A DNA stretch of 60,669 nucleotides, filler included, from 3 parts of 3 records of this genome joined end to end with filler, not necessarily neighbours in it; one strand, 5' to 3'. Positions 35,381 to 48,830 are shown, numbered from the whole stretch's first letter. The notes: generated by a model from the sequence alone, not told the origin. Made by a program: numbers and translations.

Positions 35381-38300
35381 ATGAAGTTAAGCCAGATATC
35401 CTCACTTTTTATTTTGATAATTTTATTACTTGTTGTTAACTTAACTTATTCGCAAACCATAAATGGTATAGTGAATAGTTATGCTAGAGTAACAAATATT
35501 GCAGGAAATCAATTTACAATTGGTACTCCTGCTGGTAAAGCCGGAGCATCATTAAGTGATTTTGATACTGGAAAAAAAGTACTTATTTATCAAGCTAAAG
35601 GTGCAAGTATTAATACTGGTAATAATTCTTCATTTGGACAAGTAAGCACCTTAGGAAATGCTGGTCGTTACGAAATAGCAACTGTGCAATCGAGAAGTGG
35701 GAGTACAGTCACATTCACCAGTGTAGTTAATTCCTACTCTACGAATGGAATGGTTCAATTGATTAGTATTCCACAATATAACAATGTAACTACGAATGGA
35801 ACTTTAACATCTCAGGCATGGAATCAATCCAATGGCTATGGAGGTGTGTTAATACTACAAGCTAATACTCTTACATTAGGAGCAAATATTAGTGTTGATG
35901 GTCAGGGGTTCGCTGGTGGTACAAGAAGCAGTAACAATGGAAATGGTTGTACAACAATTTATAGAAGTAACAGTAGTATCTACGGAGGAAAAGGAGAAGG
36001 AATATCTACTTATTCATCAAATTTGAGAGGTCAAGGTCCTTTAGCTAATGGTGGAGGTGGAGGATCTACTCATAATGCAGGTGGAGGTGGAGGATCTAAC
36101 CACGGACAAGGTGGGCAAGGAGGAATAGGTTGGAATTGTACCTCATCTAATTATGCTGGAGGAACAGCAGGAGATGCCATGACTTATAATAAAACTAGTC
36201 AAAGATTATTCTTTGGTGGTGGTGGTGGTGGTGGTCAGCAAAATAACTCCGTTGGAACTAATGGTGGTAATGGTGGTGGTATAATTATATTAATTGTAAA
36301 TACTTTAACTACAAATTGCAGTGCGAATCATGTAATTTCAGCTTTAGGAAATTCTGTAGGCAATTCTGGGAATGACGGCGGCGGCGGTGGAGGAGCAGGA
36401 GGAGTTATATTAATTCACACACAAAATTATCAACCTAATTCTTGTCAGATAAATTTAACTGTTGATGGTGGTGATGGTGGAAATGTTGGTTCAAGTGCTG
36501 CTCATGGTGGTGGCGGTGGTGGTGGATCAGGTCTGATCTATTCATCAATAGCTTTTCCTTCTGGAGTGAATACTTCAGGTAGTAATGGTGCAGATGGTGA
36601 AGATAATACTGGGGGAAATCATTCTGGAAATGAGGGAACGGATGAACCGATTGATATTGTTATTGATCCTGAAGTGCCTGGAGTTAATCCAGTAAGAGGT
36701 CCTGGTGGACATTTGGATGGTCTAAGAATTTGGTTTATGGCAGATCCAAATTACATTTTTCCAAATGACAATTTATCTGGAAGTATTGGAGATGGACAAC
36801 AATTGAAATCATGGGAAAATTTAGCTGCTTTTAATAATTATTTAAAGATACAGGGAGCAAATACCAATGCATCTTTCGAAAATTCAAGTGGAGATTTATT
36901 GAATTATAATGCAGTGATTCGAATGAATAATACGAATCGAAATCTTATGTCAGAAGAGAATGTTGAGGCACAAACTGTTGTTGTTGTAACAAAATCAAAT
37001 TCTACCAATAGTCTTGCAGGTCTTGTTGGGTTAGAAGGTGATAAAGGAATTCGAAAAGCTGATGACAGTAATTATTGGGGAAGTTATAATAATGATGATT
37101 GGAATAGTGGTGGAAATTCATTTATTAATGGTTCCGCTGGATATCAGCATGATAGAGAGTGGCATATTGTTTATCAGGAAAGGGGAAATTCACACACAAA
37201 TAAATTTTATGCTGGTGGATATTATAATAATAGAGGATATTATGGAGATATCGCTGAGATTATTTCCTATGACGACCGTTTATCTAATCAGGAACAAAAT
37301 CAGATCGAAACTTATTTAGCCATTAAATATGGAATTACTCTTGTAAACAAAAATTATATTGATTCAGATGGTAGTATAGTTTGGAATGCCACATCGAACA
37401 ATAGCTATAATAATGATATTTTTGGTATTGGTCGTGATAATATTTCTCTTTTAAATCAATTTCAATCAAAAAGTATTAATGGTGATGCAGTACTTGATAT
37501 TCAAGCTGAATCAACCTTAAGTGATAGGGTTTACTTGATATTTGGAAATGATAATGCTACCCTAACAGATAGAAGCACGGAGGTGCCATCAAGCAGAGGA
37601 GAGAGAATTGCAAGAATATGGAAAGTAGCCAGGTCTGGTAATCCTGGAACTGTAGAATTGAGTTTTGATTTGGCAAGTTTGGGGATAAGTTCTCCAAATG
37701 TTAATGATTTTGCATTATTGATTAGTTCTTCAGAGGATTTTACAAGTGCAACAGAACATGTTACAGGTATAAGTTTAAATGCTAGTCAGGATGTACTTAC
37801 ATTTACAAATGTATCAGTAACAAATAATCAGTATATTACTTTAGCGACAAAACCAAAGCCAGCTCCCGGAGGTGGAGAAGCAAATCTGGAATTTTGGCTT
37901 AAAGCTGATGCTGGAACTAGTACAACAACGGATGGAGTAGCTGTTACAACTTGGTCAGATCAATTAAATACCAATAATGCTGTTCAAAGGTCTGGTATTT
38001 CTCAGCCTATCTATCGAACTAATAGGTTAAATTTTAATCCTATTTTAGACTATTCAGGTTCTACAAATAGAGTATTAACCATTCCGGATTCAGATGAGCT
38101 GAATAATATGACTTCTACTTTAGAGAAGGCTTTTAGTATTGTATTTACTACGGGTGGCGATATAAATACTAGACAGGTTATTTATGAAGAAGGAGGAACA
38201 GCTCGAGGTATCAATACATATATTTTTAATGGTGAATTGTATATTGGAGCCTGGAATTTGAATAACGATGGAACAGGTTCACCTTGGGGATATTTTTCAG

Positions 38301-39568
38301 AAAAAATAAGTATTGTTGCTAATAAAACATATCTGTTAACATTTAACTATAAAGGGACCAACGCGGAAAGCGGAATTATTGAGCTAGTTGAGGCGGGAGT
38401 TGTAAAACAGACCATTTCTAGTGTAGGTCGATTGTATGCTCACGGAGCAGATATTGGAGTTGGAGGTATGGTTGGAGATTCCTACTTTGAGCCCAATGTT
38501 AACAATCAATCAGGTAATAATTATTTTTTCAAGGGACATTTTGCAGAAATTTCTTACGCAAAAGAGTATCTGTACACAGATAAACGAAATAAGATTGAAA
38601 CTTATTTAGCTTTAAAATATGGTATTACTTTAGATCAAAGTAGTGCTCAAAATTATATGTCGTCAAACGGAACTGTCGTATGGAATGGAACTGATAATTC
38701 GTTATTTAACAATGATATTACTGGTATTGGTTTGGATGTAAATACTAGTTTGGCTCAATTTAAATCCAAGAGTATTAATTCTACAGCAATAGTAACAATC
38801 GCAAATGGTACAGATATAGATAATCCTACAGCAATTTCGACTGATAACTCTTTTTTAATCTGGAGTAATAATGGTGGTACTTCTGGCGATATGACAGGAG
38901 ATTATTTAGGTGTTACCAATAATGGAATTAACAGAATATGGAGAGTATCTGAAACGGGAACTATTGGAACTGTTACTCTTCAGATACCAAAAGGTAGTGT
39001 TGCCGCAGGAGTTACCACACTTTTTGTAAGTTCAGATGCATCATTTCCAAACACTAGCGCAACTGAAAAAATAGCATTAATCTCTAATGGAGCCAATTGG
39101 GAAGTAACTTTTGATTTTGATGACGATAAGTATTTCACATTTGGAAAGTTAAATTCGGCTCCTGAATTAACTAATATTGAAGCTGCAAACTTAAATTACT
39201 GTAGTGGTGACGAGGTAATAAGCAGTACAATTAAGGTTACCGACAATGATAATGATATGATAACAGCTACAATAACTATTTCAGGAGGTTTTATTGCTGG
39301 TGAAGATCAATTGATTTATTCAACAGTATCGGGTGTTACTGCAACAATAACAGATCAAACCATTCAATTAAGTTCTTCAAGTGTTACTAACATCCAGAAT
39401 GCATTAATCACGGTTAAATATAGAAATACTAAAAATGATAGTTCAAGAACTACTGGCAATCGAACAATTAGCTTTATTGTTAATGATGGTGTTGAATCTA
39501 GTAATCAACTAACCAGAGATATAGAAGTATTTCTCATTCCCGCTCCTATTGGTATATTTCATGAATAA
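35381..39568 (+). CDS. Large secreted Gly-rich, adhesin-like surface protein with duplicated beta-rich (LamG-like) modules
   Basis: Signal peptide; poly-Gly region; two copies of IETYLA(I/L)KYGITL..VWN..NNDI.GIG..QF.SKSIN; C-terminus PAPIGIFHE. Confidence 0.8.
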   Translation: MKLSQISSLFILIILLLVVNLTYSQTINGIVNSYARVTNIAGNQFTIGTPAGKAGASLSDFDTGKKVLIYQAKGASINTGNNSSFGQVSTLGNAGRYEIATVQSRSGSTVTFTSVVNSYSTNGMVQLISIPQYNNVTTNGTLTSQAWNQSNGYGGVLILQANTLTLGANISVDGQGFAGGTRSSNNGNGCTTIYRSNSSIYGGKGEGISTYSSNLRGQGPLANGGGGGSTHNAGGGGGSNHGQGGQGGIGWNCTSSNYAGGTAGDAMTYNKTSQRLFFGGGGGGGQQNNSVGTNGGNGGGIIILIVNTLTTNCSANHVISALGNSVGNSGNDGGGGGGAGGVILIHTQNYQPNSCQINLTVDGGDGGNVGSSAAHGGGGGGGSGLIYSSIAFPSGVNTSGSNGADGEDNTGGNHSGNEGTDEPIDIVIDPEVPGVNPVRGPGGHLDGLRIWFMADPNYIFPNDNLSGSIGDGQQLKSWENLAAFNNYLKIQGANTNASFENSSGDLLNYNAVIRMNNTNRNLMSEENVEAQTVVVVTKSNSTNSLAGLVGLEGDKGIRKADDSNYWGSYNNDDWNSGGNSFINGSAGYQHDREWHIVYQERGNSHTNKFYAGGYYNNRGYYGDIAEIISYDDRLSNQEQNQIETYLAIKYGITLVNKNYIDSDGSIVWNATSNNSYNNDIFGIGRDNISLLNQFQSKSINGDAVLDIQAESTLSDRVYLIFGNDNATLTDRSTEVPSSRGERIARIWKVARSGNPGTVELSFDLASLGISSPNVNDFALLISSSEDFTSATEHVTGISLNASQDVLTFTNVSVTNNQYITLATKPKPAPGGGEANLEFWLKADAGTSTTTDGVAVTTWSDQLNTNNAVQRSGISQPIYRTNRLNFNPILDYSGSTNRVLTIPDSDELNNMTSTLEKAFSIVFTTGGDINTRQVIYEEGGTARGINTYIFNGELYIGAWNLNNDGTGSPWGYFSEKISIVANKTYLLTFNYKGTNAESGIIELVEAGVVKQTISSVGRLYAHGADIGVGGMVGDSYFEPNVNNQSGNNYFFKGHFAEISYAKEYLYTDKRNKIETYLALKYGITLDQSSAQNYMSSNGTVVWNGTDNSLFNNDITGIGLDVNTSLAQFKSKSINSTAIVTIANGTDIDNPTAISTDNSFLIWSNNGGTSGDMTGDYLGVTNNGINRIWRVSETGTIGTVTLQIPKGSVAAGVTTLFVSSDASFPNTSATEKIALISNGANWEVTFDFDDDKYFTFGKLNSAPELTNIEAANLNYCSGDEVISSTIKVTDNDNDMITATITISGGFIAGEDQLIYSTVSGVTATITDQTIQLSSSSVTNIQNALITVKYRNTKNDSSRTTGNRTISFIVNDGVESSNQLTRDIEVFLIPAPIGIFHE

Positions 39569-39784: not shown

Positions 39785-40840
39785 ATGAAAAAAGCTCGCT
39801 TGTTTTTTCAACTTATAGGAATTGGAATATTCACTATATCATTAATTATTGTTGGTTGTACAAAGGAGGGACCAATGGGACCAGCAGGTGCTGATGGAAC
39901 CGATGGAACGAATGGAACGGATGGAACCGACGGAACAACTTCATGTTTGGCTTGTCACAATACTACTGTTGAGGCGACAATAAATGCTCAGTATGACATG
40001 TCAACACACGGAGGAAGTCAAAATTTTTATCCGGGTAGTCCATTAGTTTCAGATTATGCTGGAGCAAGAAATGATTGTGCAAAATGTCACTCACATGAAG
40101 GGTTCATAGAAACTCAAAAAACGGGTAGAGATACAACCGCTGCAGATTTCGAGATTCCAACCAATATCACTTGTAATACTTGCCATTCAACTCATAGTAC
40201 TTTTGATTTTGAGACTGATGGTCAGGATTATGCGTTAAGCACAAATGCTCCTATTGCATTGTTAATTGATAAGAATGCAGAAATTGATTTTGGCAATAAC
40301 AGTAATCTTTGTGTGAATTGTCACCAACCACGAACAGCTGCTCCTGTTGACGATGGTACTGGTAATTTTACTCATGGTAGTATTCGATTTGGACCTCATC
40401 ATTCACCGCAAGCAACTATGGTCTATGGTATTGGAGGTTATGAAACTTTGGATGGAGACTATTCTGGTGCCCGTAATTCGACACATAATACTGCAGGGTC
40501 GTGTACTTTATGTCATATGAATGAGAAAGACGATGTTGCTTCTCACGATTGGGTACCTACAGTTGAGTCATGTCAGGAATGTCACACTTCATTAACGGAT
40601 TTTGACTTAAATGGTGTTCAAACTGATGTATTGGCTAAAATGGCAACACTTAAAGGTTTATTAGAAACTAATGGTTTGTTAGATGCAACTAGTGGAAATA
40701 CAATCGCAGGAACATTCCCAATTGCTCATGCAGGAGCTTTATTTAATTATAAGACAGTTCTTGAAGATCAAAGTAATGGAGTTCATAATCCAGCTTATAC
40801 AAAAGCCTTATTAGATGAATCTATTGCGGCATTCGATTAA
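39785..40840 (+). CDS. Hexaheme cytochrome c lipoprotein with collagen-like stalk
   Basis: Lipobox IIVG-C, G-X-Y repeats GPMGPAGADGTDGTNGTDGTDG, six CxxCH (CLACH, CAKCH, CNTCH, CVNCH, CTLCH, CQECH). Confidence 0.9.
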   Translation: MKKARLFFQLIGIGIFTISLIIVGCTKEGPMGPAGADGTDGTNGTDGTDGTTSCLACHNTTVEATINAQYDMSTHGGSQNFYPGSPLVSDYAGARNDCAKCHSHEGFIETQKTGRDTTAADFEIPTNITCNTCHSTHSTFDFETDGQDYALSTNAPIALLIDKNAEIDFGNNSNLCVNCHQPRTAAPVDDGTGNFTHGSIRFGPHHSPQATMVYGIGGYETLDGDYSGARNSTHNTAGSCTLCHMNEKDDVASHDWVPTVESCQECHTSLTDFDLNGVQTDVLAKMATLKGLLETNGLLDATSGNTIAGTFPIAHAGALFNYKTVLEDQSNGVHNPAYTKALLDESIAAFD

Positions 40841-40951: not shown

Positions 40952-41266
40952 CTATTGTTTTACTTCTTCAACCTTAAATTTCATTTTTTCCAATGCCTTC
41001 TTAAGGTTTTCTTTGTTGGTTTTATCTGTTTTATAGCTAATCGTTACTTTTTGATTCTTAAAATCAACTTTTAACTCTTTAACTCCTTTTTCATAAGGAA
41101 TGTTTTTTTCAATTTTACCGGCACATCCCATGCAGTCCATTTCAACTTTAAATACAACTGACTCTACTTTTTTTGCATCTTTGCTCCCCGCAAATGCCAT
41201 ATTTGAAAGTAAGATAATGCTTAGGGCTAGAATTGTGCTTTTTAAGATTTGTGTTAAATTCTTCAT
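40952..41266 (-). CDS. Periplasmic heavy-metal-associated (HMA) domain protein
   Basis: Signal peptide; MDCMGCAGKIE motif. Confidence 0.88.
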   Translation of the reverse strand: MKNLTQILKSTILALSIILLSNMAFAGSKDAKKVESVVFKVEMDCMGCAGKIEKNIPYEKGVKELKVDFKNQKVTISYKTDKTNKENLKKALEKMKFKVEEVKQ

Positions 41267-41301
41267 GTTTAAATTTTTTATGGTTTAGGTATTAGTATTG
41301 T

Positions 41302-43527
41302 TTATTCTCGGTCAATTGTGAATCGTACGCCAACATAAAACTTGCGTTCTTGTATTGGTCCCCAAATCATTGAGGCATCGAAATTTTCATTAAAAGGATT
41401 GTCTGCAGAAATAATAGGATCTTTCTGGGTATAATTACCTAAGTTTTCAGCTCCTACATAAATTTCCCAAATTCTGAATCTCTTTGTTACCTGTGCATTC
41501 ATCAGTGCATAAGTTGGAGACTTCTCCCTTCTCTGGTGTTGTGTTGGGTTTTCCTGAGTAGAAGGTATTCTCATATCACCATTGAATTGTGTCGTAAAAT
41601 CAAATTGCCATTTGTTAAAGTTTGTGGCATAAGATAAATTGATTAAACCTTTATATTGATTTACATATGGAACTTTTTGAAATTCATTATTGATATCTGC
41701 TTTTACATCAGAAAAACGAATTGCCGTTGTTACATCAAACCTTTCAATCGGCTCAAATTTTAATTCTACCTGATAATTGTTTGCCCACGATTTGCCTTCA
41801 AGATTATAAAATTGCACAGCGTTTACACTATGGTCCAGATCAACAATAACTTGATTTTCGAAGGAAGTTCTATAAAAATCGGCAGATAGTGTAAATCCCT
41901 TTCCGAATAAATCGAAATACTGAGTCATACTCAAACCAAAATTCCAGGCTTTTTCCTGTTTTAAATCTTCCAAAATTTCGAATGAACGATTCGATGCCAA
42001 CAAGAAACTATTCTCGGCAATTGGATTTGATGTTCTTCTTCCACTACCAGCAGCTAAACGCATTGTGGATTTAGGAGCAAATTGATATCTGAAATGAATA
42101 CGAGGTGTTAAAAATCCATCGTAGATATTGTGATTGTCATATCTTAAGCCAGTTTGTAAGGTAATGTTATCGTTAGGTAGCCAGGTGTATTCCAGGTAAG
42201 CTCCACCAACTTTTTCTGTTCTATTGGTGCTTAAATTATCACCAGTTAAGTGATCTTTAAAATCATCATATACAAAGGATAAACCTGCAGTGTATTTGTG
42301 TTTTAAATTGCCAATATAAGATTGAAACAATAAATTCGCGTAGAAATACTTCTGGTCTGCATCGTAATTTCTTAGTCCATAAAAGGAATTTTGCTCATGT
42401 GATGCAAAGTTGGTAATCAAAGCGATACTCTTATCGTCATCGTTTGGAAAGATATAGCCAAATTTAGCAAAAGCTTCATATCTTCTGGTATCAATATCAA
42501 TCCGATAAGCATTATTAGAATCATTAGGTTTGCTTTCATCAAACCCTTTTTGACCTCCAATTCGCTTCTCATCAATAAATTTTGCACCAAATTGTACTTT
42601 TAAAAACTCACTTGCATCCCAATTCCATCGGTTGATAAAATTGTATTGCGTTACCATTGGATCATCTAAGAAATCATCATGATTTTTGTCAATTTCTTTA
42701 TCATTATCCTGAACATGTGCCAATATAGAAGTAGACAATTTAGGTGATAATTTGGCTGATGTAATAATATTTGCCTCAGCCATTCCCATACTATTTGCAT
42801 AGGTATTTAAATAGAATTTTGGTGAATTTTGTGGTTTTTGATATTCAATATTAATTTGTCCGGTGATGGATTCATATCCATTTATAACCGAGCCTACACC
42901 CTTTGATACTTGAATTGATTCCATCCATGGACCAGGAACATATACCATTCCGTAAACTGAAGCTAAGCCTTTAAAATTGGGGTTTTTCTCAGTCATCATT
43001 TCGATGTACTTACCGGTTAGTCCCAATAATTTAATGGATTTTGCACCAGTAGCTGCGTCGGCATACGAAACATCAACAGAAGCATTGGTCTCAAAACTTT
43101 CCGAAAGATTACAGCAGGCAGCTTTACAAAGTTCTGCACCTGTAATGCTTTGCGATTGTATTGGATTATCTCGGTCTAAAACAGTTCCCAGTTTTCTTTT
43201 AGAAATTACCACTTCATTTAAAGAAATGTTTGGAACTAATTCTACCAGAATCTCATCTTTGTTACTTTCATTTATTGATATTTCTTTGGTTTCATATCCA
43301 ACGAACTGCACAACCAATGTGTTTGATTTAGAGGTTGAGCTCAAGTTAAATACACCATCAGCATTGGCTGCAGTACCAATATTGGTATTTTTCCAGAAAA
43401 CAGAAGCTCCCGCTAACGGGATGATTTCTCCTGAATTAGGTTTTTCTATAATTTTCCCTTTTATATCTTTTGCAAAGCATATACAGGGAACTAGAGAAAG
43501 GATTATCGTAATAATTCTAATCTTCAT
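41302..43527 (-). CDS. TonB-dependent receptor (probable metal uptake)
   Basis: N-terminal CarboxypepD_reg-like domain, plug ELCKAACCNLSESFETN, C-terminal GAENL..FYVGVRF. Confidence 0.9.
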   Translation of the reverse strand: MKIRIITIILSLVPCICFAKDIKGKIIEKPNSGEIIPLAGASVFWKNTNIGTAANADGVFNLSSTSKSNTLVVQFVGYETKEISINESNKDEILVELVPNISLNEVVISKRKLGTVLDRDNPIQSQSITGAELCKAACCNLSESFETNASVDVSYADAATGAKSIKLLGLTGKYIEMMTEKNPNFKGLASVYGMVYVPGPWMESIQVSKGVGSVINGYESITGQINIEYQKPQNSPKFYLNTYANSMGMAEANIITSAKLSPKLSTSILAHVQDNDKEIDKNHDDFLDDPMVTQYNFINRWNWDASEFLKVQFGAKFIDEKRIGGQKGFDESKPNDSNNAYRIDIDTRRYEAFAKFGYIFPNDDDKSIALITNFASHEQNSFYGLRNYDADQKYFYANLLFQSYIGNLKHKYTAGLSFVYDDFKDHLTGDNLSTNRTEKVGGAYLEYTWLPNDNITLQTGLRYDNHNIYDGFLTPRIHFRYQFAPKSTMRLAAGSGRRTSNPIAENSFLLASNRSFEILEDLKQEKAWNFGLSMTQYFDLFGKGFTLSADFYRTSFENQVIVDLDHSVNAVQFYNLEGKSWANNYQVELKFEPIERFDVTTAIRFSDVKADINNEFQKVPYVNQYKGLINLSYATNFNKWQFDFTTQFNGDMRIPSTQENPTQHQRREKSPTYALMNAQVTKRFRIWEIYVGAENLGNYTQKDPIISADNPFNENFDASMIWGPIQERKFYVGVRFTIDRE

Positions 43528-43678
43528 AAAAAGTAATTGTATAGTATTAGAGCCTTAAGATCAAGTTAAATAGATCTTTAGTCTAATAAGTATTTCCAGA
43601 ATAAATGTTTGTTGTTATTAGAATATTGAATGATTTCAAATTATTTTGAAATCATAAATCAAAGTATTTGATTGAATA

Positions 43679-44131
43679 TCAACAAAGGAAGCAACAAAGG
43701 AATTCCTGCATGATCTTATCTGAAGAATCTAAATAAGAATCAAAGTATTCCAATGATGGAATTTCAGGAGTTAAAAATGAAAGAATTTTAAAATTATCGG
43801 TAACAAATAGATTTAACTCCAATATATTAGGAGCTTTACTATTTTTACTAATTGTAGTTGTTGGATTAGTTTTTAGAAAAACAAAATCGTAATCACAGCA
43901 TATTTGAGGTGTGTCAGAAGTTGGTTCAATATGAGACTCACGAGAATGATCATGACTCTCACAACAACAATGTTCACTTCCCGCTGCGAAATTATCAGCA
44001 CTAAGCGTTATGTGAAGATCTGAATGATTACATGAAAAACAGCTATGTTTAATGAAATGAATACCGCAAATTCCTGTTAGGTAAAAAACCAACAGAATCA
44101 TTGAAAAAATATTTTTAAGCGGTTGTTTCAT
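43679..44131 (-). CDS. Cys/His-rich small protein (HYC_CC_PP-like) preceding the TonB receptor
   Basis: KHSCFSC, HCCCESHDH, ICCD, terminal CCFLC. Confidence 0.7.
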   Translation of the reverse strand: MKQPLKNIFSMILLVFYLTGICGIHFIKHSCFSCNHSDLHITLSADNFAAGSEHCCCESHDHSRESHIEPTSDTPQICCDYDFVFLKTNPTTTISKNSKAPNILELNLFVTDNFKILSFLTPEIPSLEYFDSYLDSSDKIMQEFLCCFLC

Positions 44132-44413: not shown

Positions 44414-45028
44414 CTAATGCCAACCAGTTATCATACTTTTAAAGTTACTGCTGATCGAACTTCCTATTGTACACACATATATATGAATAAATAAGAATAG
44501 GGAAAGTACAAATCCAATGATCACATGTACAAGGGCAGTTATTAATAATCCACTCAGCCCAAAAATCTGAGGAAGAATTATTTCGGGAAATAACATGGCT
44601 ATGCCGCTTGCAATTATTATTGGAAATCCAATATACATCGCAGTGGAATATATGAACCTTTGAAGAGGATTGAATTTGTTTTCAACAGTAATAGGGAATG
44701 GAGCTTCTTGTTTTTTGAACATTCCAAACAGGTAAAAAATGGATTGATCAAACAATCTTTTAAATAAGCCTTTGGTTTTCATTTTGTATTGTTTCCCATT
44801 TGAAGTGAACAAATTACCGATTATAAATATCAGATAATTTATGCTTATAATGATACCACAAATATTATGAAGCTGCACAGATAATTCAAATGGAATTAAT
44901 AACGGATTTTCAGGATTTGAATACTGCATACTAACTCCGGTTAAAAGCAGTATAATGAATAGAATAGCATTTAGCCAGTGCCAAATTCGAATCCAAATAG
45001 GATATAAATATAATTTTTCGTCAGCCAT
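44414..45028 (-). CDS. Di-heme cytochrome b (Ni/Fe-hydrogenase b-subunit / FdnI-like fold)
   Basis: RIWHWLNA, QLHNICG, KFNPLQR, LVHV..IHIY, SMITGW; probable start MADEKLY at 45028. Confidence 0.88.
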   Translation of the reverse strand: MADEKLYLYPIWIRIWHWLNAILFIILLLTGVSMQYSNPENPLLIPFELSVQLHNICGIIISINYLIFIIGNLFTSNGKQYKMKTKGLFKRLFDQSIFYLFGMFKKQEAPFPITVENKFNPLQRFIYSTAMYIGFPIIIASGIAMLFPEIILPQIFGLSGLLITALVHVIIGFVLSLFLFIHIYVCTIGSSISSNFKSMITGWH

Positions 45029-45029
45029 A

Positions 45030-45971
45030 TTATTTGCGTTTAAAAATTCGGAAAATACTGTGGGTAAATATTCCAACCAATACTAGCCCAAAAAGAATTA
45101 CACTTAATATGTTTAGATATTGATTCCTATTTGCACCAATTACATATGAATCGTTTAGAATTACGGCATTTAAAAATCCGCCACTTTTTCTTGATTCTAA
45201 ACTCTTATACTTGTACAAACTTGCCATTAAATGTGAATTCTCCGAATGACATGAAGTGCATTCACGAATCGCATTTTCTTTAGGCATTACAACATGACTA
45301 ACTAATAAACTATCATTTAATTGGGTATGACATTCAATACACCTAACATTTTTAAAGTGTAACTCTTGATTTGGCAACCAGTCATGTGTTTTAAGAATAT
45401 TAATATCTTCTCTTTCTGTTAATAGCTCATATTTACTGATATCGGCGTGACAGCTTAAGCAAATATTATTATCATACAAGACTGTTTCTGTGATTTTTTC
45501 ACTAACTCTTGCTTGTGTTTTATATGAGTGTGGATTGTGGCAACTCCAGCATGTAAATGCATCAGGAGAGCGATTGTAATGCATACTCTCATAAAATGCC
45601 TCTTCGATAGCTTCGAAATGAAATTTTTCATATTCTGGATCACCTGCATGACAATCGTTACAAGCATACATCATCTCCATACGAAGATTTCCTGCGTGAG
45701 GAAAAGTTTCATAGTCTGGCGAATGACAATCAGTACATTTAAACATTCCATGATTAGATTGTGCATAGGCAATGGTGTCTATCATTCTGTTAGCACACAT
45801 CGACTCTTTGATTTCCATTCCGAAATCTTCGTTCATGTACTTATATGTTCTGTTTCCGTGACACTTCAGGCATTCCTGGTTCTTTTTTGTATCAACAGGA
45901 GGATTATCTTGAGCGTGTAGCACGGTAACGGTCAAGATTAATCCGATAAAAACCGTTAAATGTTTTAGCAT
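45030..45971 (-). CDS. Heptaheme cytochrome c with C-terminal membrane anchor
   Basis: Signal peptide; CLKCH, CTDCH, CNDCH, CWSCH, CLSCH, CIECH, CTSCH; C-terminal TM helix containing a His. Confidence 0.9.
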   Translation of the reverse strand: MLKHLTVFIGLILTVTVLHAQDNPPVDTKKNQECLKCHGNRTYKYMNEDFGMEIKESMCANRMIDTIAYAQSNHGMFKCTDCHSPDYETFPHAGNLRMEMMYACNDCHAGDPEYEKFHFEAIEEAFYESMHYNRSPDAFTCWSCHNPHSYKTQARVSEKITETVLYDNNICLSCHADISKYELLTEREDINILKTHDWLPNQELHFKNVRCIECHTQLNDSLLVSHVVMPKENAIRECTSCHSENSHLMASLYKYKSLESRKSGGFLNAVILNDSYVIGANRNQYLNILSVILFGLVLVGIFTHSIFRIFKRK

Positions 45972-46020
45972 ATTGGTTTTATTACATGGGTTAGTTACAA
46001 ATCAGGTCTGACAAAAGACA

Positions 46021-46056
46021 AAAAAGGGTATAATGCAATGTAATTATACCCTTTTT
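46021..46056. terminator. Hairpin between monoheme and heptaheme cytochrome genes
   Basis: AAAAAGGGTATAAT..ATTATACCCTTTTT. Confidence 0.7.
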
Positions 46057-46072
46057 TATCCTTAAAATAATT

Positions 46073-46477
46073 TTACTTTTTAAATGAGCGCATGTAATTT
46101 ACAACAGCCCATCTGTCTTTCTTGCTAGGTATCTTTTTCTCATAATTTGGCATTTCATCTCTACCAATGATAGACTTGTACAAAATTTCGCCATCTTTTT
46201 GAGCGTGAAATTCGGCTGAAGAGAAGTCACCTGGGAAAGTTTTAAGACGAGCTGCCTTTGGTCCATCACCTAAACCTTGGTTCCCGTGACAAGAGCGACA
46301 ATGTTTCATGTATACCATTTTACCTTTTTTAATGCTGGCTTGATCATCTGCAATTGGGTTTTCCAAACTCTTATACTCTGCAGGAACTTCCCATGGTCCC
46401 GCCTTCTTTTGTTGAACTGTAAATGCAAAACCAACTATTGCAATGGCAATTAAGGTAAAAATTTTTATCGTTTTCAT
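46073..46477 (-). CDS. Monoheme cytochrome c
   Basis: Signal peptide, CRSCHG..GDGP, distal Met in GRDEMP. Confidence 0.9.
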   Translation of the reverse strand: MKTIKIFTLIAIAIVGFAFTVQQKKAGPWEVPAEYKSLENPIADDQASIKKGKMVYMKHCRSCHGNQGLGDGPKAARLKTFPGDFSSAEFHAQKDGEILYKSIIGRDEMPNYEKKIPSKKDRWAVVNYMRSFKK

Positions 46478-46501
46478 AAGCTTAATTTTTTATGAGAGAT
46501 T

Positions 46502-47410
46502 TTAAAATCTTACTAAGATGTTGAATCCAACAAGAAAATCTCCGTCACTAATTTTATTTTTATTGTATAAAGCATTCCTTTGCGGAGTAATTCCCTCATA
46601 GTTCGACATAAACACTTGGAATACATGTGTACTAGTACCAATTTCTATACCAAAAGATAGATTTGCTTCAGGATCGTTATCATCCGATTCATATTCCCTC
46701 ATATCATCAATGTTTAAAGGCTGATCATATTCAAAAAATACTGACATTGACGGAGTAACTTTAGCTCTACCTGCTAGTGAAATGGCAAACTTATCGTGTT
46801 CAACCAAAGAATCTGTTTTATTAAAGTGTGTAAAACTTGGAGCTAATTGCAGCGAAATGTTATCATTGAATTTATGCGCAACAATGATTTGTGAGAAATA
46901 AGCTAATCTGTCTGAGAATGTATAATCATTTCCAAAAACAACCTTATCTTGAGAATTAATAGCTAAATTACCATACAAAGCGACTGACACAGGAATAGAA
47001 TTCGATTCAGTTTGTGTAAAAACTCTGTACTTACCATGAAATTCCTGTAGTTTGAACTCTTTGGTATAACCATAACCAATCATGAATTTTTCGGTTATAC
47101 CATAATCAATACCCATTCGGATATTAGATGTAGAATATATGCCGAAAACATCTTCCAAGCCATTTTCGATTAAACCAAAACGATGCTGGATATGCAAACC
47201 AAATTCACCTGCATATGGAGTTTCAGTAGTTTGTGTTTCACCTAATAAGCCTGATTCGAATGTGCCACTTACAGGTTCGTTAGCGAATTCATCCTCTTGG
47301 GCAAGAGTAGGTATCGACATTCCAATAATAAAAGTCAATATTAATAGACATGGAAGGAAAATCGATAAAAAGGAATATTTATCTCTTTTACTGATATATT
47401 TTGTATTCAT
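46502..47410 (-). CDS. DUF5777-family outer-membrane beta-barrel
   Basis: IQHRFG, NIRMGIDYG, GIEIGTSTHVFQ, C-terminal GFNILVRF. Confidence 0.85.
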   Translation of the reverse strand: MNTKYISKRDKYSFLSIFLPCLLILTFIIGMSIPTLAQEDEFANEPVSGTFESGLLGETQTTETPYAGEFGLHIQHRFGLIENGLEDVFGIYSTSNIRMGIDYGITEKFMIGYGYTKEFKLQEFHGKYRVFTQTESNSIPVSVALYGNLAINSQDKVVFGNDYTFSDRLAYFSQIIVAHKFNDNISLQLAPSFTHFNKTDSLVEHDKFAISLAGRAKVTPSMSVFFEYDQPLNIDDMREYESDDNDPEANLSFGIEIGTSTHVFQVFMSNYEGITPQRNALYNKNKISDGDFLVGFNILVRF

Positions 47411-47421
47411 AGTCTTAATTT

Positions 47422-47793
47422 TTAGTTGTTGTTAGCACCTCGGGTTATCCATTCAAGAATCAACTGCTTTTCGGTGGCAGAAGCCCTTGTACTATGAGAT
47501 CCTTCCAGTAAAACCTTATACAGTTCGCTATCGGCAGGTGTTTCGGTGTTGATGTAACCACCATTTTGTAGAGCAGTGTATGCATTTGCTTCTCTTAAAT
47601 CCGGATCTATTCCACCATCATGACAATCAACACAATTAGCATTGAATATCGGTTGGATATCATTACCAAAAGTAACCTCTTGATCTGGTGGAATTACAAT
47701 TTCATCGAATTCTACTGTATCGTACTCACAGGAGACAAAGCAGAGCAGTGCCGCAAAAATCGGTAACAGGTGTACTAATTTGCTCTTTTGCAT
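47422..47793 (-). CDS. Monoheme cytochrome c lipoprotein
   Basis: Lipobox FVS-C; DIQPIFNANCVDCH; EWITRGANNN. Confidence 0.85.
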   Translation of the reverse strand: MQKSKLVHLLPIFAALLCFVSCEYDTVEFDEIVIPPDQEVTFGNDIQPIFNANCVDCHDGGIDPDLREANAYTALQNGGYINTETPADSELYKVLLEGSHSTRASATEKQLILEWITRGANNN

Positions 47794-48125
47794 AGTATTT
47801 AGATTTTAGATTAAGTACTGATTAGGTTCTTTAAGGTTTTTCACCTCATTCTAAAGGTAAAAATTTGGAATTATAGCAGCGATTATGGCGTGGCGAGATT
47901 TATTTTATGAAAAAAAGGAATTTGTCTCTTTCAAATCGACATTTATCAGTGTTTCACTAGGCTTATCTCACTCTTTTTTCTATATTTAATAGTTGTTTGA
48001 TAGAAAATATTAATTACGAAGCATATGATTCACTAGTATTTTGGGTGAAAAATGATTTGATTTTAATTTTTTTTAAAATAGCTTTAAATACCCATTTTTG
48101 AAACCCCTATTTCTAACCTAATACT

Positions 48126-48830
48126 ATGGCTAAATTTTCTAAATCTGATAATTGCAAAAACTGTGTTGATTGCAATATGAGAATCCCCCAATTGAGTTTG
48201 CTTTCACATGATGAGTTAATTGAATTAAATAAAAGCCGATTTGAAGTTAAATTTAAAGCTGGCGAAACAATTTTTAAACAAGGTACCTCAGCTACTCATT
48301 TGCTAATATTAACGACAGGATTGGCAAAATTGTATGTTGAAGGCGTTCAAGATAAGCAATTAATAATTAGAATTGTAAAACCCTGGGAGATTGTTGGTCA
48401 AGCATCATTGTATTTTGATAATAGACACCACTATTCTATTGCGGCATTGGATGATTGTACAGCATGCTTTATTGATATTGAGTCATTTAAAAGTTTGATC
48501 AAATCAAATTCATTGTTTGCAGAAGAGTTTATTCGAAATTGTACTCAAAAAGGCATTTATTCGTTTGAAAAAATGGTTAGTCTTTCACAAAAACAAATGC
48601 ATGGAAGAATTGCAGATGGATTGATTTATCTTACGAATAAAGTTTATGAAAGTGTCGAGTTTAATTTGCACCTTTCGCGGCAAGATGTTGCGGATCTTAC
48701 GGGAATGTCTAAGGATAGTGCGATTCGAATCCTTAAAGAGTTCCATAACGAAGGAATTATAAAACTTGATGGACGAAAGCTTAGTGTTCTAGATTTTGAT
48801 CAGTTGGAACGAATTAGTGAAACCGGATGA
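48126..48830 (+). CDS. Crp/Fnr-family transcriptional regulator
   Basis: N-terminal CKNCVDC, GETIFKQG, GRIAD, HTH LSRQDVADLTGMSKDSAIRIL. Confidence 0.92.
   Translation: MAKFSKSDNCKNCVDCNMRIPQLSLLSHDELIELNKSRFEVKFKAGETIFKQGTSATHLLILTTGLAKLYVEGVQDKQLIIRIVKPWEIVGQASLYFDNRHHYSIAALDDCTACFIDIESFKSLIKSNSLFAEEFIRNCTQKGIYSFEKMVSLSQKQMHGRIADGLIYLTNKVYESVEFNLHLSRQDVADLTGMSKDSAIRILKEFHNEGIIKLDGRKLSVLDFDQLERISETG

Follow-up and report, generated by a model that had tools for sequence, protein, structure and literature searches.

A CbcBA-DUF5777 operon of Bacteroidales as a candidate route for extracellular electron transfer

Introduction

How could a fermenting bacterium hand electrons from menaquinol to an acceptor beyond its outer membrane, and does the cytochrome-rich locus described here encode such a route? 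The locus is an operon for an outer-membrane barrel of the DUF5777 family, a CbcBA-type pair of cytochromes and two monoheme cytochromes c, and it lies in a stretch of 60,669 nt, filler included (the window), in which three parts of three records were joined that are perhaps not neighbours in the genome. The DNA stems from a Marinifilum-like host, and the barrel of the window is 99% identical to a protein of an uncultured Marinifilum and 78-88% identical to other Marinifilum and Labilibaculum proteins. Bacteroidota are abundant fermenters of anoxic sediments and some of them reduce Fe(III) or Mn(IV), with no tested pathway named in the literature that was found.

The answer favoured here, with moderate confidence, is that the operon encodes an FNR-controlled, anoxia-induced chain from menaquinol to a surface or extracellular acceptor, which would serve a fermenter as an auxiliary electron sink.

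Results

Six open reading frames were found where the original prediction, made from the sequence of the window, had placed five co-oriented genes and a divergent Crp/Fnr gene. In order of transcription on the minus strand, the five encode a monoheme lipoprotein cytochrome c (47422-47793; 123 aa, lipobox Cys22, one CxxCH), the DUF5777 outer-membrane beta-barrel (46502-47410; Pfam PF19089, 254.6 bits), a soluble periplasmic class I monoheme cytochrome c (46073-46477; PF13442/PF00034, His64/Met109), a CbcA-type heptaheme cytochrome c (45030-45971; seven CxxCH, signal peptide, C-terminal helix) and a CbcB-type di-heme cytochrome b with the quinone site (44414-45028; PF01292, 98.5 bits), separated by 11, 24, 101 and 1 bp, respectively. 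The Crp/Fnr regulator (PF00027 and PF13545) occupies 48126-48830 on the plus strand. The five genes stood as a unit, but its extent had been drawn too narrowly: a hexaheme c lipoprotein with a collagen-like linker (39785-40840, plus strand; six CxxCH, lipobox Cys25, PF22113 above cut-off) belongs to it too.

The gene set recurs. A sample of 401 Bacteroidales genomes was surveyed, and a CbcB-type cytochrome b, called by the gap of 206 versus 143 bits that parts it from its paralogues, was detected in 88; weaker matches (~30% identity; <145 bits) were left out of this number. A strong DUF5777 match was present in 86/88 CbcB genomes against 84/313 others, with 12 matches at E >1e-10 scored as negative, and the p-values of such genome-level associations are overstated, the genomes being related. 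About 10 kb on each side was taken for 80 of the 88 genomes (eight fall outside this set; G002 is represented by locus L006), and these 80 loci contained the heptaheme gene in every case, the barrel and the lipoprotein in 74 each, Crp/Fnr in 61, the hexaheme in 59 and the monoheme in 57. Such recurrence (heptaheme 80/80; barrel plus lipoprotein 74/80) is not a matter of chance. The commonest order was Crp/Fnr followed by hexaheme, lipoprotein, barrel, monoheme (where present), heptaheme and cytochrome b, with the hexaheme first in the operon. On the same strand and no more than 5 kb upstream, a barrel gene was present in 72/80 genome loci and in 24/25 metagenome loci, the latter being those of 80 fetched metagenome loci that had at least 5 kb of upstream DNA, and all 25 had a barrel somewhere in the locus. 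Two of the six barrel-less genome loci were cut within 1 kb, and four were true exceptions. Fourteen Marinifilaceae loci extend as far as cytochrome b; all 14 have barrel, monoheme and heptaheme, and 13 have lipoprotein and Crp/Fnr, the locus lacking both being a truncated contig. Among the top 22 neighbour clusters of the 80 loci there was no molybdopterin or hydrogenase catalytic subunit, in line with the earlier observation that no catalytic hydrogenase or reductase subunit is nearby.

The soluble monoheme protein, whose Met109 was kept in 57/57 orthologues, is a His/Met class I cytochrome and would also suit a scheme in which CbcBA and the monoheme act as a substitute complex III that feeds cbb3 or Cox oxidases or peroxidases in microoxia, the barrel genes being only co-regulated. 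Carriers do encode cbb3 and Cox oxidases (PMC5760507). This scheme is extremely unlikely, however, given that an alternative-complex-III-type subunit already exists in three of the five carrier genomes in which whole-genome checks were made (the relatives G002-G005 and G135), that the recurring neighbours in the 80 loci include no oxidase genes, and that the operon shows tight co-evolution with the barrel.

The b/c pair was compared with the published description of Geobacter CbcBA and is CbcBA-like by its predicted architecture. The four His of the cytochrome b on which the original prediction was based (H17, H54, H168 and H182) were invariant in 108 homologues and are the membrane His, while its start has to be moved: ATG at 45028 (204 aa) is likelier than TTG at 45076, because the resulting length matches the closest homologues. 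The best NCBIfam match was the thiosulfate reductase cytochrome b (176 bits, under the cut-off of 204). The heptaheme protein is anchored in the inner membrane by its C-terminal helix rather than soluble; His304 in this anchor was present in 77/77 orthologues, and seven further His are invariant besides the seven CxxCH. It is also matched by PDB entry 28pb, titled simply "Cytochrome c" (E 8e-6). In Geobacter, CbcA is described as a seven-heme cytochrome whose C-terminal anchor gives a His ligand to a b heme, and CbcB as a cytochrome b of four helices that resembles "thiosulfate reductase"; the Discussion of the same source lists Labilibaculum, Prolixibacter and Marinilabiliales among the organisms with cbcBA and suggests that these genes may mark extracellular electron transfer (10.1101/2021.04.15.440034).

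Variants of the pair were also seen. Fusions of heptaheme and cytochrome b, 521-549 aa long, were encoded at L126:8432-9997, L289 and L291. Seven weaker-match loci (L135-L141) had a paralogous cytochrome b (~30% identity) whose companions are an octaheme protein and small membrane proteins, as well as neighbours which I take to be tetrathionate-reductase- and YeeE-like; this cytochrome b was considered as a CbcB and set apart as a different system by its octaheme context.

The barrel was modelled with a predicted local distance difference test score (pLDDT) of 91.9 as 12 strands plus an N-terminal segment. Its nearest folds were KdgM, FapF, COG4313, NanC and LpxR (Z 16-18; LpxR 16.2), with OMPLA at 11.3. 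Two His were nearly without exception: His76 in 78/78 and His262 in 73/73 sequences, and in 137/140 and 130/136, respectively, of the sequences that include the site in a set of 145 representatives (50% identity level). Alignment of 247 sequences showed outward strand positions to be mostly 84-100% hydrophobic, and by this periodicity, from which the register was derived instead of from coordinates, His76 is in phase with F70, L72, I74 and F78, and His262 with F264, V266 and M268, so that both fall into the lipid-facing register. His195 (76% conserved) points outward too, and strands 11, 12 and 1 make one face, with His76 on upper strand 1 and His262 at the periplasmic end of strand 11. Arg/Lys residues are conserved on the inward side, and neither His76 nor His262 is part of a His-x-Ser motif. 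Cytochrome domains were found fused ahead of the barrel, of the lipoprotein type in L119 and L121 and of the monoheme type in P0532, and tandem double barrels (L060, P0397) kept all four His. In the partner lipoprotein, C54, C57 and H58 were invariant among 69 sequences and His100 is the probable distal ligand; the distal position was His in 46 and Met in 20 of the 69 from CbcBA operons, compared with Met in 52/57 phylum-wide.

These features do not agree with the role first proposed for DUF5777, that of a porin of the MtrAB/PioAB type. Pcc porins have 18-22 strands and MtrB is predicted to have 28 (PMC4245776), and with only 12 strands, and with His facing outward, the DUF5777 barrel does not fit the porin-cytochrome model. 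A heme in the barrel lumen was rejected on the outward register together with the strand number. No soluble periplasmic cytochrome with 5-14 hemes was among the recurring neighbours of the examined loci. Searches of the five carrier genomes for the MtrB family, and with one query and no positive control for a Pcc-type porin, returned nothing, which does not prove absence.

What, then, might the barrel do? Invariance of the His, their outward register, tandem barrels with all four His and the cytochrome fusions are the reasons for a tentative and rather doubtful proposal, in which DUF5777 would be a "cytochrome b" of the outer membrane with a beta-barrel as its scaffold, heme binding, oligomeric state and side-chain direction all being inferred. 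The barrel would form a dimer whose His76 and His262 reach into the lipid on one face and hold two b hemes at different depths, so that electrons could cross the membrane with no multiheme threaded through it. Barrel and lipoprotein would then be a phylum-wide redox unit of the outer membrane, supplied with quinol carried by YceI in most species and with electrons from CbcBA in about one-fifth of Bacteroidales genomes, and an OcwA-like hexaheme would discharge them to minerals. A complex prediction for a pair of barrels and two hemes, made with the alignment unused, gave scores of 0.20 and 0.24 (mark 0.32) and speaks neither for nor against. A heme-bearing barrel, if true, would be categorically new.

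The YceI link was seen in a phylum-wide sample of 151 genomes, in which DUF5777 occurred in 65 and CbcB in three. Of 79 barrel genes with fetched loci, 63 had as neighbour a gene of the lipoprotein/monoheme cluster with a heme motif, and 59 had YceI. The expected co-occurrence of DUF5777 with cytochromes was borne out in CbcB genomes, but the family is by itself not a marker of extracellular electron transfer, lying mostly beside YceI. The CbcBA-linked barrels form one clade (74/74 plus five others, support 0.79) that leaves all 58 YceI-linked barrels outside, and YceI was present in only 4/80 CbcBA loci, belonging to a second barrel in two and being a weak, distant match in the other two. Since barrel and lipoprotein are paired with YceI, a lipid carrier, and not with CbcBA in most other Bacteroidota, this core would have interchangeable electron inputs.

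A third operon type combined barrel and lipoprotein with an EB_dh lipoprotein (L097:7021-8382, L105:4216-5448, L107:4096-5427), EB_dh being presumably a heme b domain of the DOMON type; the barrels of this type group with the CbcBA clade.

Outward His are also what LpxR and OMPLA have, 12-strand barrels with a catalytic His on the outer wall, and together with YceI beside 59/79 phylum-wide barrel genes this raises the alternative that DUF5777 serves as an enzyme facing the lipid or as a site of redox maintenance (modifying lipids, detoxifying peroxide or handling quinol in the outer membrane), which is fed by cytochromes and takes no part in extracellular respiration. I consider this distinctly unlikely: neither barrel His sits in a His-x-Ser motif, the CbcBA clade is nearly free of YceI, and partners such as an OcwA-like multiheme, ImcH-type proteins and 19-heme proteins would be needless for maintenance chemistry.

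The hexaheme lipoprotein is the candidate terminal, outer cytochrome of the chain, with a predicted fold of the OcwA/OmhA/NrfA clan. A profile search matched it to 6i5b (OcwA; E 1.3e-10), the top Foldseek matches of its model (pLDDT 87) were 6i5b and 6qvm, and the superposition with OcwA gave Z 15.8 at a root-mean-square deviation of 3.3 over 236 aligned residues, followed by OmhA at Z 15.5. OcwA is a surface terminal reductase of Thermincola potens (PMC6703420), and it and OmhA both reduce Fe(III) at the surface. All six CxxCH His are invariant, as are six further His. The gene was found in 77/88 CbcB genomes versus 21/313 others and within ~10 kb of cytochrome b in 59/80 loci, upstream on the same strand in 39 of these. 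In Marinifilaceae it lies downstream on the other strand, usually past a TonB/HMA module, and is the next gene in L005. While the five operon genes and the regulator are 96-100% identical between the window and L001, the hexaheme is only 79% identical; among close relatives its identity ranges from 35% to 85%, adjacent genes keeping ~80% or more, which suggests allele exchange or diversifying selection.

The same fold invites another explanation, namely periplasmic respiration of a soluble acceptor, where the hexaheme, fed by CbcBA, would be an NrfA-clan reductase of a small nitrogen, sulfur or organic substrate and the barrel its substrate channel. NrfA (Z 12.8), octaheme nitrite reductase and MccA all match the hexaheme at Z 9-13; the barrel's nearest folds KdgM and NanC are solute channels, and its inward Arg/Lys are conserved; the hexaheme export signal is incomplete; and a His205-His/Tyr206 pair, kept in 58/58 sequences (His 38, Tyr 20), recalls the HH distal pocket of OcwA with its five-coordinate hemes, a putative correspondence given that the alignment with OcwA did not reach the stretch with the HH motif. 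CxxCK, however, is the motif of the NrfA catalytic heme, and the hexaheme has none; its six further invariant His could ligate all hemes. A channel would also leave the invariant outward His and the cytochrome fusions unexplained, and Labilibaculum was reported to reduce neither nitrate, nitrite nor sulfate (PMC5760507). Soluble-acceptor respiration is therefore judged unlikely.

Hexaheme homologues of ten other loci adjoined a 12-14-heme cytochrome in nine, eight of these also with a 425-434-aa barrel-like protein, called a barrel by its sequence pattern and matching no Pfam or NCBIfam family. Loci L128-L133 and L142-L144 carried large clusters of Rieske/cytochrome b, 11-heme, 12-14-heme and 6-heme lipoprotein genes with the barrel-like protein and a hexaheme homologue, which by their predicted arrangement are Pcc-like conduits.

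Regulation was addressed at the promoter and at the regulator. The motif TTGAT-N4-ATCAA, the FNR consensus, was found with at most one mismatch in the 300 bp that precede the first gene of 64/96 non-Marinifilaceae loci, against 4.9 in shuffled sequences, and was also the top de novo dyad. In 13/13 Marinifilaceae promoters the best box lies 139-142 bp upstream, and that of the window is degenerate (47933-47952; ~140 bp upstream of the operon, matrix score 9.0). Cys13, Cys16 and Cys114 of the regulator were conserved at 97-100% in 60 orthologues and a fourth Cys at only 30%; the window regulator scored under all NCBIfam Fnr cut-offs. A sigma-70 scan showed no excess (44 versus 47.7 in shuffles). 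The operon is probably oxygen-regulated and would be induced by anoxia.

Recurring neighbours of the 80 loci included an ImcH-type protein (27/80), a fusion of 19-heme cytochrome and cytochrome b (12), a trio of FeS/NrfD genes (20-21) and genes for cytochrome c maturation. The ImcH-type class was assigned by the published description (495-519 aa, three N-terminal helices, one CX3CH and six CX2CH; PMC6295460) and has no member in the window. The CX3CH and the six CX2CH were present in 27/27, with three helices in 20 and four in seven by crude hydropathy. The 19-heme protein (L225:4396-7194 and 11 further loci) is ~930 aa long, with 19 CxxCH, a cytochrome b561-like domain and a CbcL-like layout, and is often accompanied by a tetraheme c554-type partner.

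These neighbours and the regulator also bear on the direction of flow. Cytochromes b of the FdnI/HydC type are electrogenic in the inward direction, and the monoheme-on-barrel fusions resemble the layout of Cyc2; reduced donors outside the cell (Fe(II), reduced humics, metal, cathodes or partner cells) might hence reduce menaquinone through the same proteins and make proton-motive force. CbcL-type homologues are known from Fe(II) oxidisers (PMC6295460). Inward flow nevertheless appears very unlikely: FNR-type control, the lipoprotein heme shifted to His/His ligation and the Fe(III)-reducing phenotype of carriers favour the outward direction, as do ImcH partners, which are reported only from reducers (PMC6295460).

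That phenotype comes from cultured carriers. Labilibaculum manganireducens and L. filiforme transferred 2-16% of glucose electrons to Fe(III) by a route unknown to the authors, and L. manganireducens reduced Mn(IV) as well (PMC5760507); both (L006, L016) have the five genes and the hexaheme. Of these two strains L. manganireducens alone gave an ImcH-type match (one query against draft genomes, n=2), a small fit with ImcH as the high-potential route in Geobacter (10.1101/2021.04.15.440034). Contigs from marine-sediment RNA (four runs, two studies) include stretches of each of the five genes and of the hexaheme; such contigs cannot rank expression or prove a single transcript, and DNA carry-over is possible.

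Several other features of the window were noted. A perfect 15-bp inverted repeat with an 8-nt loop and a T run (46020-46057), terminator- or stabiliser-like, separates the monoheme and heptaheme genes and may raise the level of the first three genes; it was seen by direct reading of the sequence and was not among the calls of a terminator scan. The region 40952-44131 encodes a Cys/His-rich 150-aa protein, a TonB-dependent receptor and an HMA protein, a metal-uptake-like module that sits between cytochrome b and hexaheme in most Marinifilaceae and is not there in L005. A secreted 1395-aa protein (35381-39568), which matches no Pfam family and has a Gly-rich domain resembling AgmC_N (182 bits, under the cut-off), adjoins the hexaheme in L001, not in the other displayed Marinifilaceae loci. 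Segment 27103-35146 has N gaps at both ends and a lower GC content (0.28-0.32 in 3-kb bins), encodes a proline racemase-like protein, DoeB2, a two-component pair and a protein that I assume to be UspA-like, and may be a foreign or mis-scaffolded piece.

Discussion

The favoured chain would run from menaquinol through CbcB, CbcA, the periplasmic monoheme, the barrel/lipoprotein unit and the hexaheme to an extracellular acceptor. Cytochrome b and heptaheme would oxidise menaquinol as CbcBA does, with His304 ligating one of the b hemes. By analogy with PhsC, FdnI and HydC the quinone site would face the cytoplasm, and outward flow would therefore cost proton-motive force and suit low-potential acceptors. 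The periplasm would be bridged by the heptaheme and the soluble monoheme, the outer membrane crossed by barrel and monoheme lipoprotein via one or more cofactor sites at the outward-facing His and with no threaded multiheme, and the tethered OcwA-fold hexaheme would act as terminal reductase towards Fe(III)/Mn(IV) oxides, chelates or humic-type shuttles. Of the extracellular electron transfer chain originally predicted, the overall idea agrees with the CbcBA-DUF5777 association (86/88), the OcwA-like lipoprotein, the ImcH-type neighbours (27/80) and the Fe(III)-reducing carriers, and the lumenal porin role had to be given up.

A number of observations count against this chain. Four CbcBA loci have 7-10 kb of upstream DNA and no barrel, and in genome G045, where cbcBA is fused, no barrel was matched. 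Many genomes that lack CbcBA or multihemes have DUF5777 nonetheless, a protein with at least four hemes being found in the fetched locus of only 1/79 phylum-wide barrel genes, and I know of no precedent for a 12-strand barrel as an electron conduit. In the window the TonB/HMA module parts the hexaheme from the operon, and the hexaheme has only a weak box of its own (score 3.9). Its start, C-T-K-E-G, is only part of the export signal C-X-K-(D/E)2, of which K-D alone is insufficient (PMC5080379). Its predicted fold is also that of soluble-substrate reductases, as the NrfA match indicates, and OcwA itself turns over nitrite slowly (PMC6703420). The operon is tied to Fe(III) reduction by its presence in reducing strains, only those 2-16% of electrons reached metals, and the authors of the Labilibaculum study proposed NrfHA or a ferric reductase instead (PMC5760507).

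If the favoured chain is true, a large group would be added to metal cycling together with a marker set, DUF5777 would be given a function, and an outer-membrane electron step would exist outside the porin-cytochrome model; the operon is a complete candidate pathway in culturable strains. As for novelty, CbcBA homologues in these bacteria are already published, so that the chain was not wholly undescribed as had been suggested, and the link between barrel, hexaheme and operon is new as far as found. No published description of the operon, the barrel role or the hexaheme link came up in the literature covered (subscription journals mostly fell outside it), a full-text search returned no paper on DUF5777, and Atlas searches gave no named function.

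Comparison with known systems places each part of the chain. The barrel shares its 12-strand fold with KdgM/NanC, FapF, COG4313, LpxR and OMPLA (Z 11-18) at 5-12% identity, none of which is, to my knowledge, known as a cytochrome partner. Cyc2 likewise has a monoheme domain N-terminal to a barrel, as in the fusions L119, L121 and P0532, but the barrel here is smaller and of another family, the genes are usually separate, and the link is to a quinol oxidase and not to iron oxidation. With Pcc (OmbB/OmaB/OmcB) and MtrCAB/PioAB the operon shares the combination of a barrel, a lipoprotein multiheme and periplasmic cytochromes near quinol oxidases (PMC4245776), and hexaheme homologues do occur in the Pcc-like clusters of other genomes; the systems differ in strand number (12, not 18-28), in the soluble 5-14-heme insert missing here, in the invariant His of the barrel itself and in its obligate partner having one heme. 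OcwA (PDB 6I5B, PMC6703420) and OmhA of Carboxydothermus ferrireducens (PDB 6QVM, PMC7829351), the best structural matches of the hexaheme, have the same NrfA-clan heme core, C-terminal helical bundle and GVHN motif, whereas the hexaheme has six hemes instead of nine and 11, respectively, at ~25% identity, and belongs to a diderm, being a lipoprotein on a collagen-like tether. Geobacter CbcBA (GSU0593-0594), finally, has the same adjacent anchored seven-heme cytochrome c and thiosulfate-reductase-like cytochrome b, a His in the C-terminal anchor of the c subunit and a divergent regulator as well. There the regulator is the sigma-54-type BccR, a feature of the Geobacter operon and not of the CbcBA enzyme, and here it is Crp/Fnr with an FNR box; the pair here shares its operon with an outer-membrane barrel and three more cytochromes, a grouping not described in the Geobacter CbcBA paper, and its host, unlike that of the Geobacter enzyme, is a fermenter.

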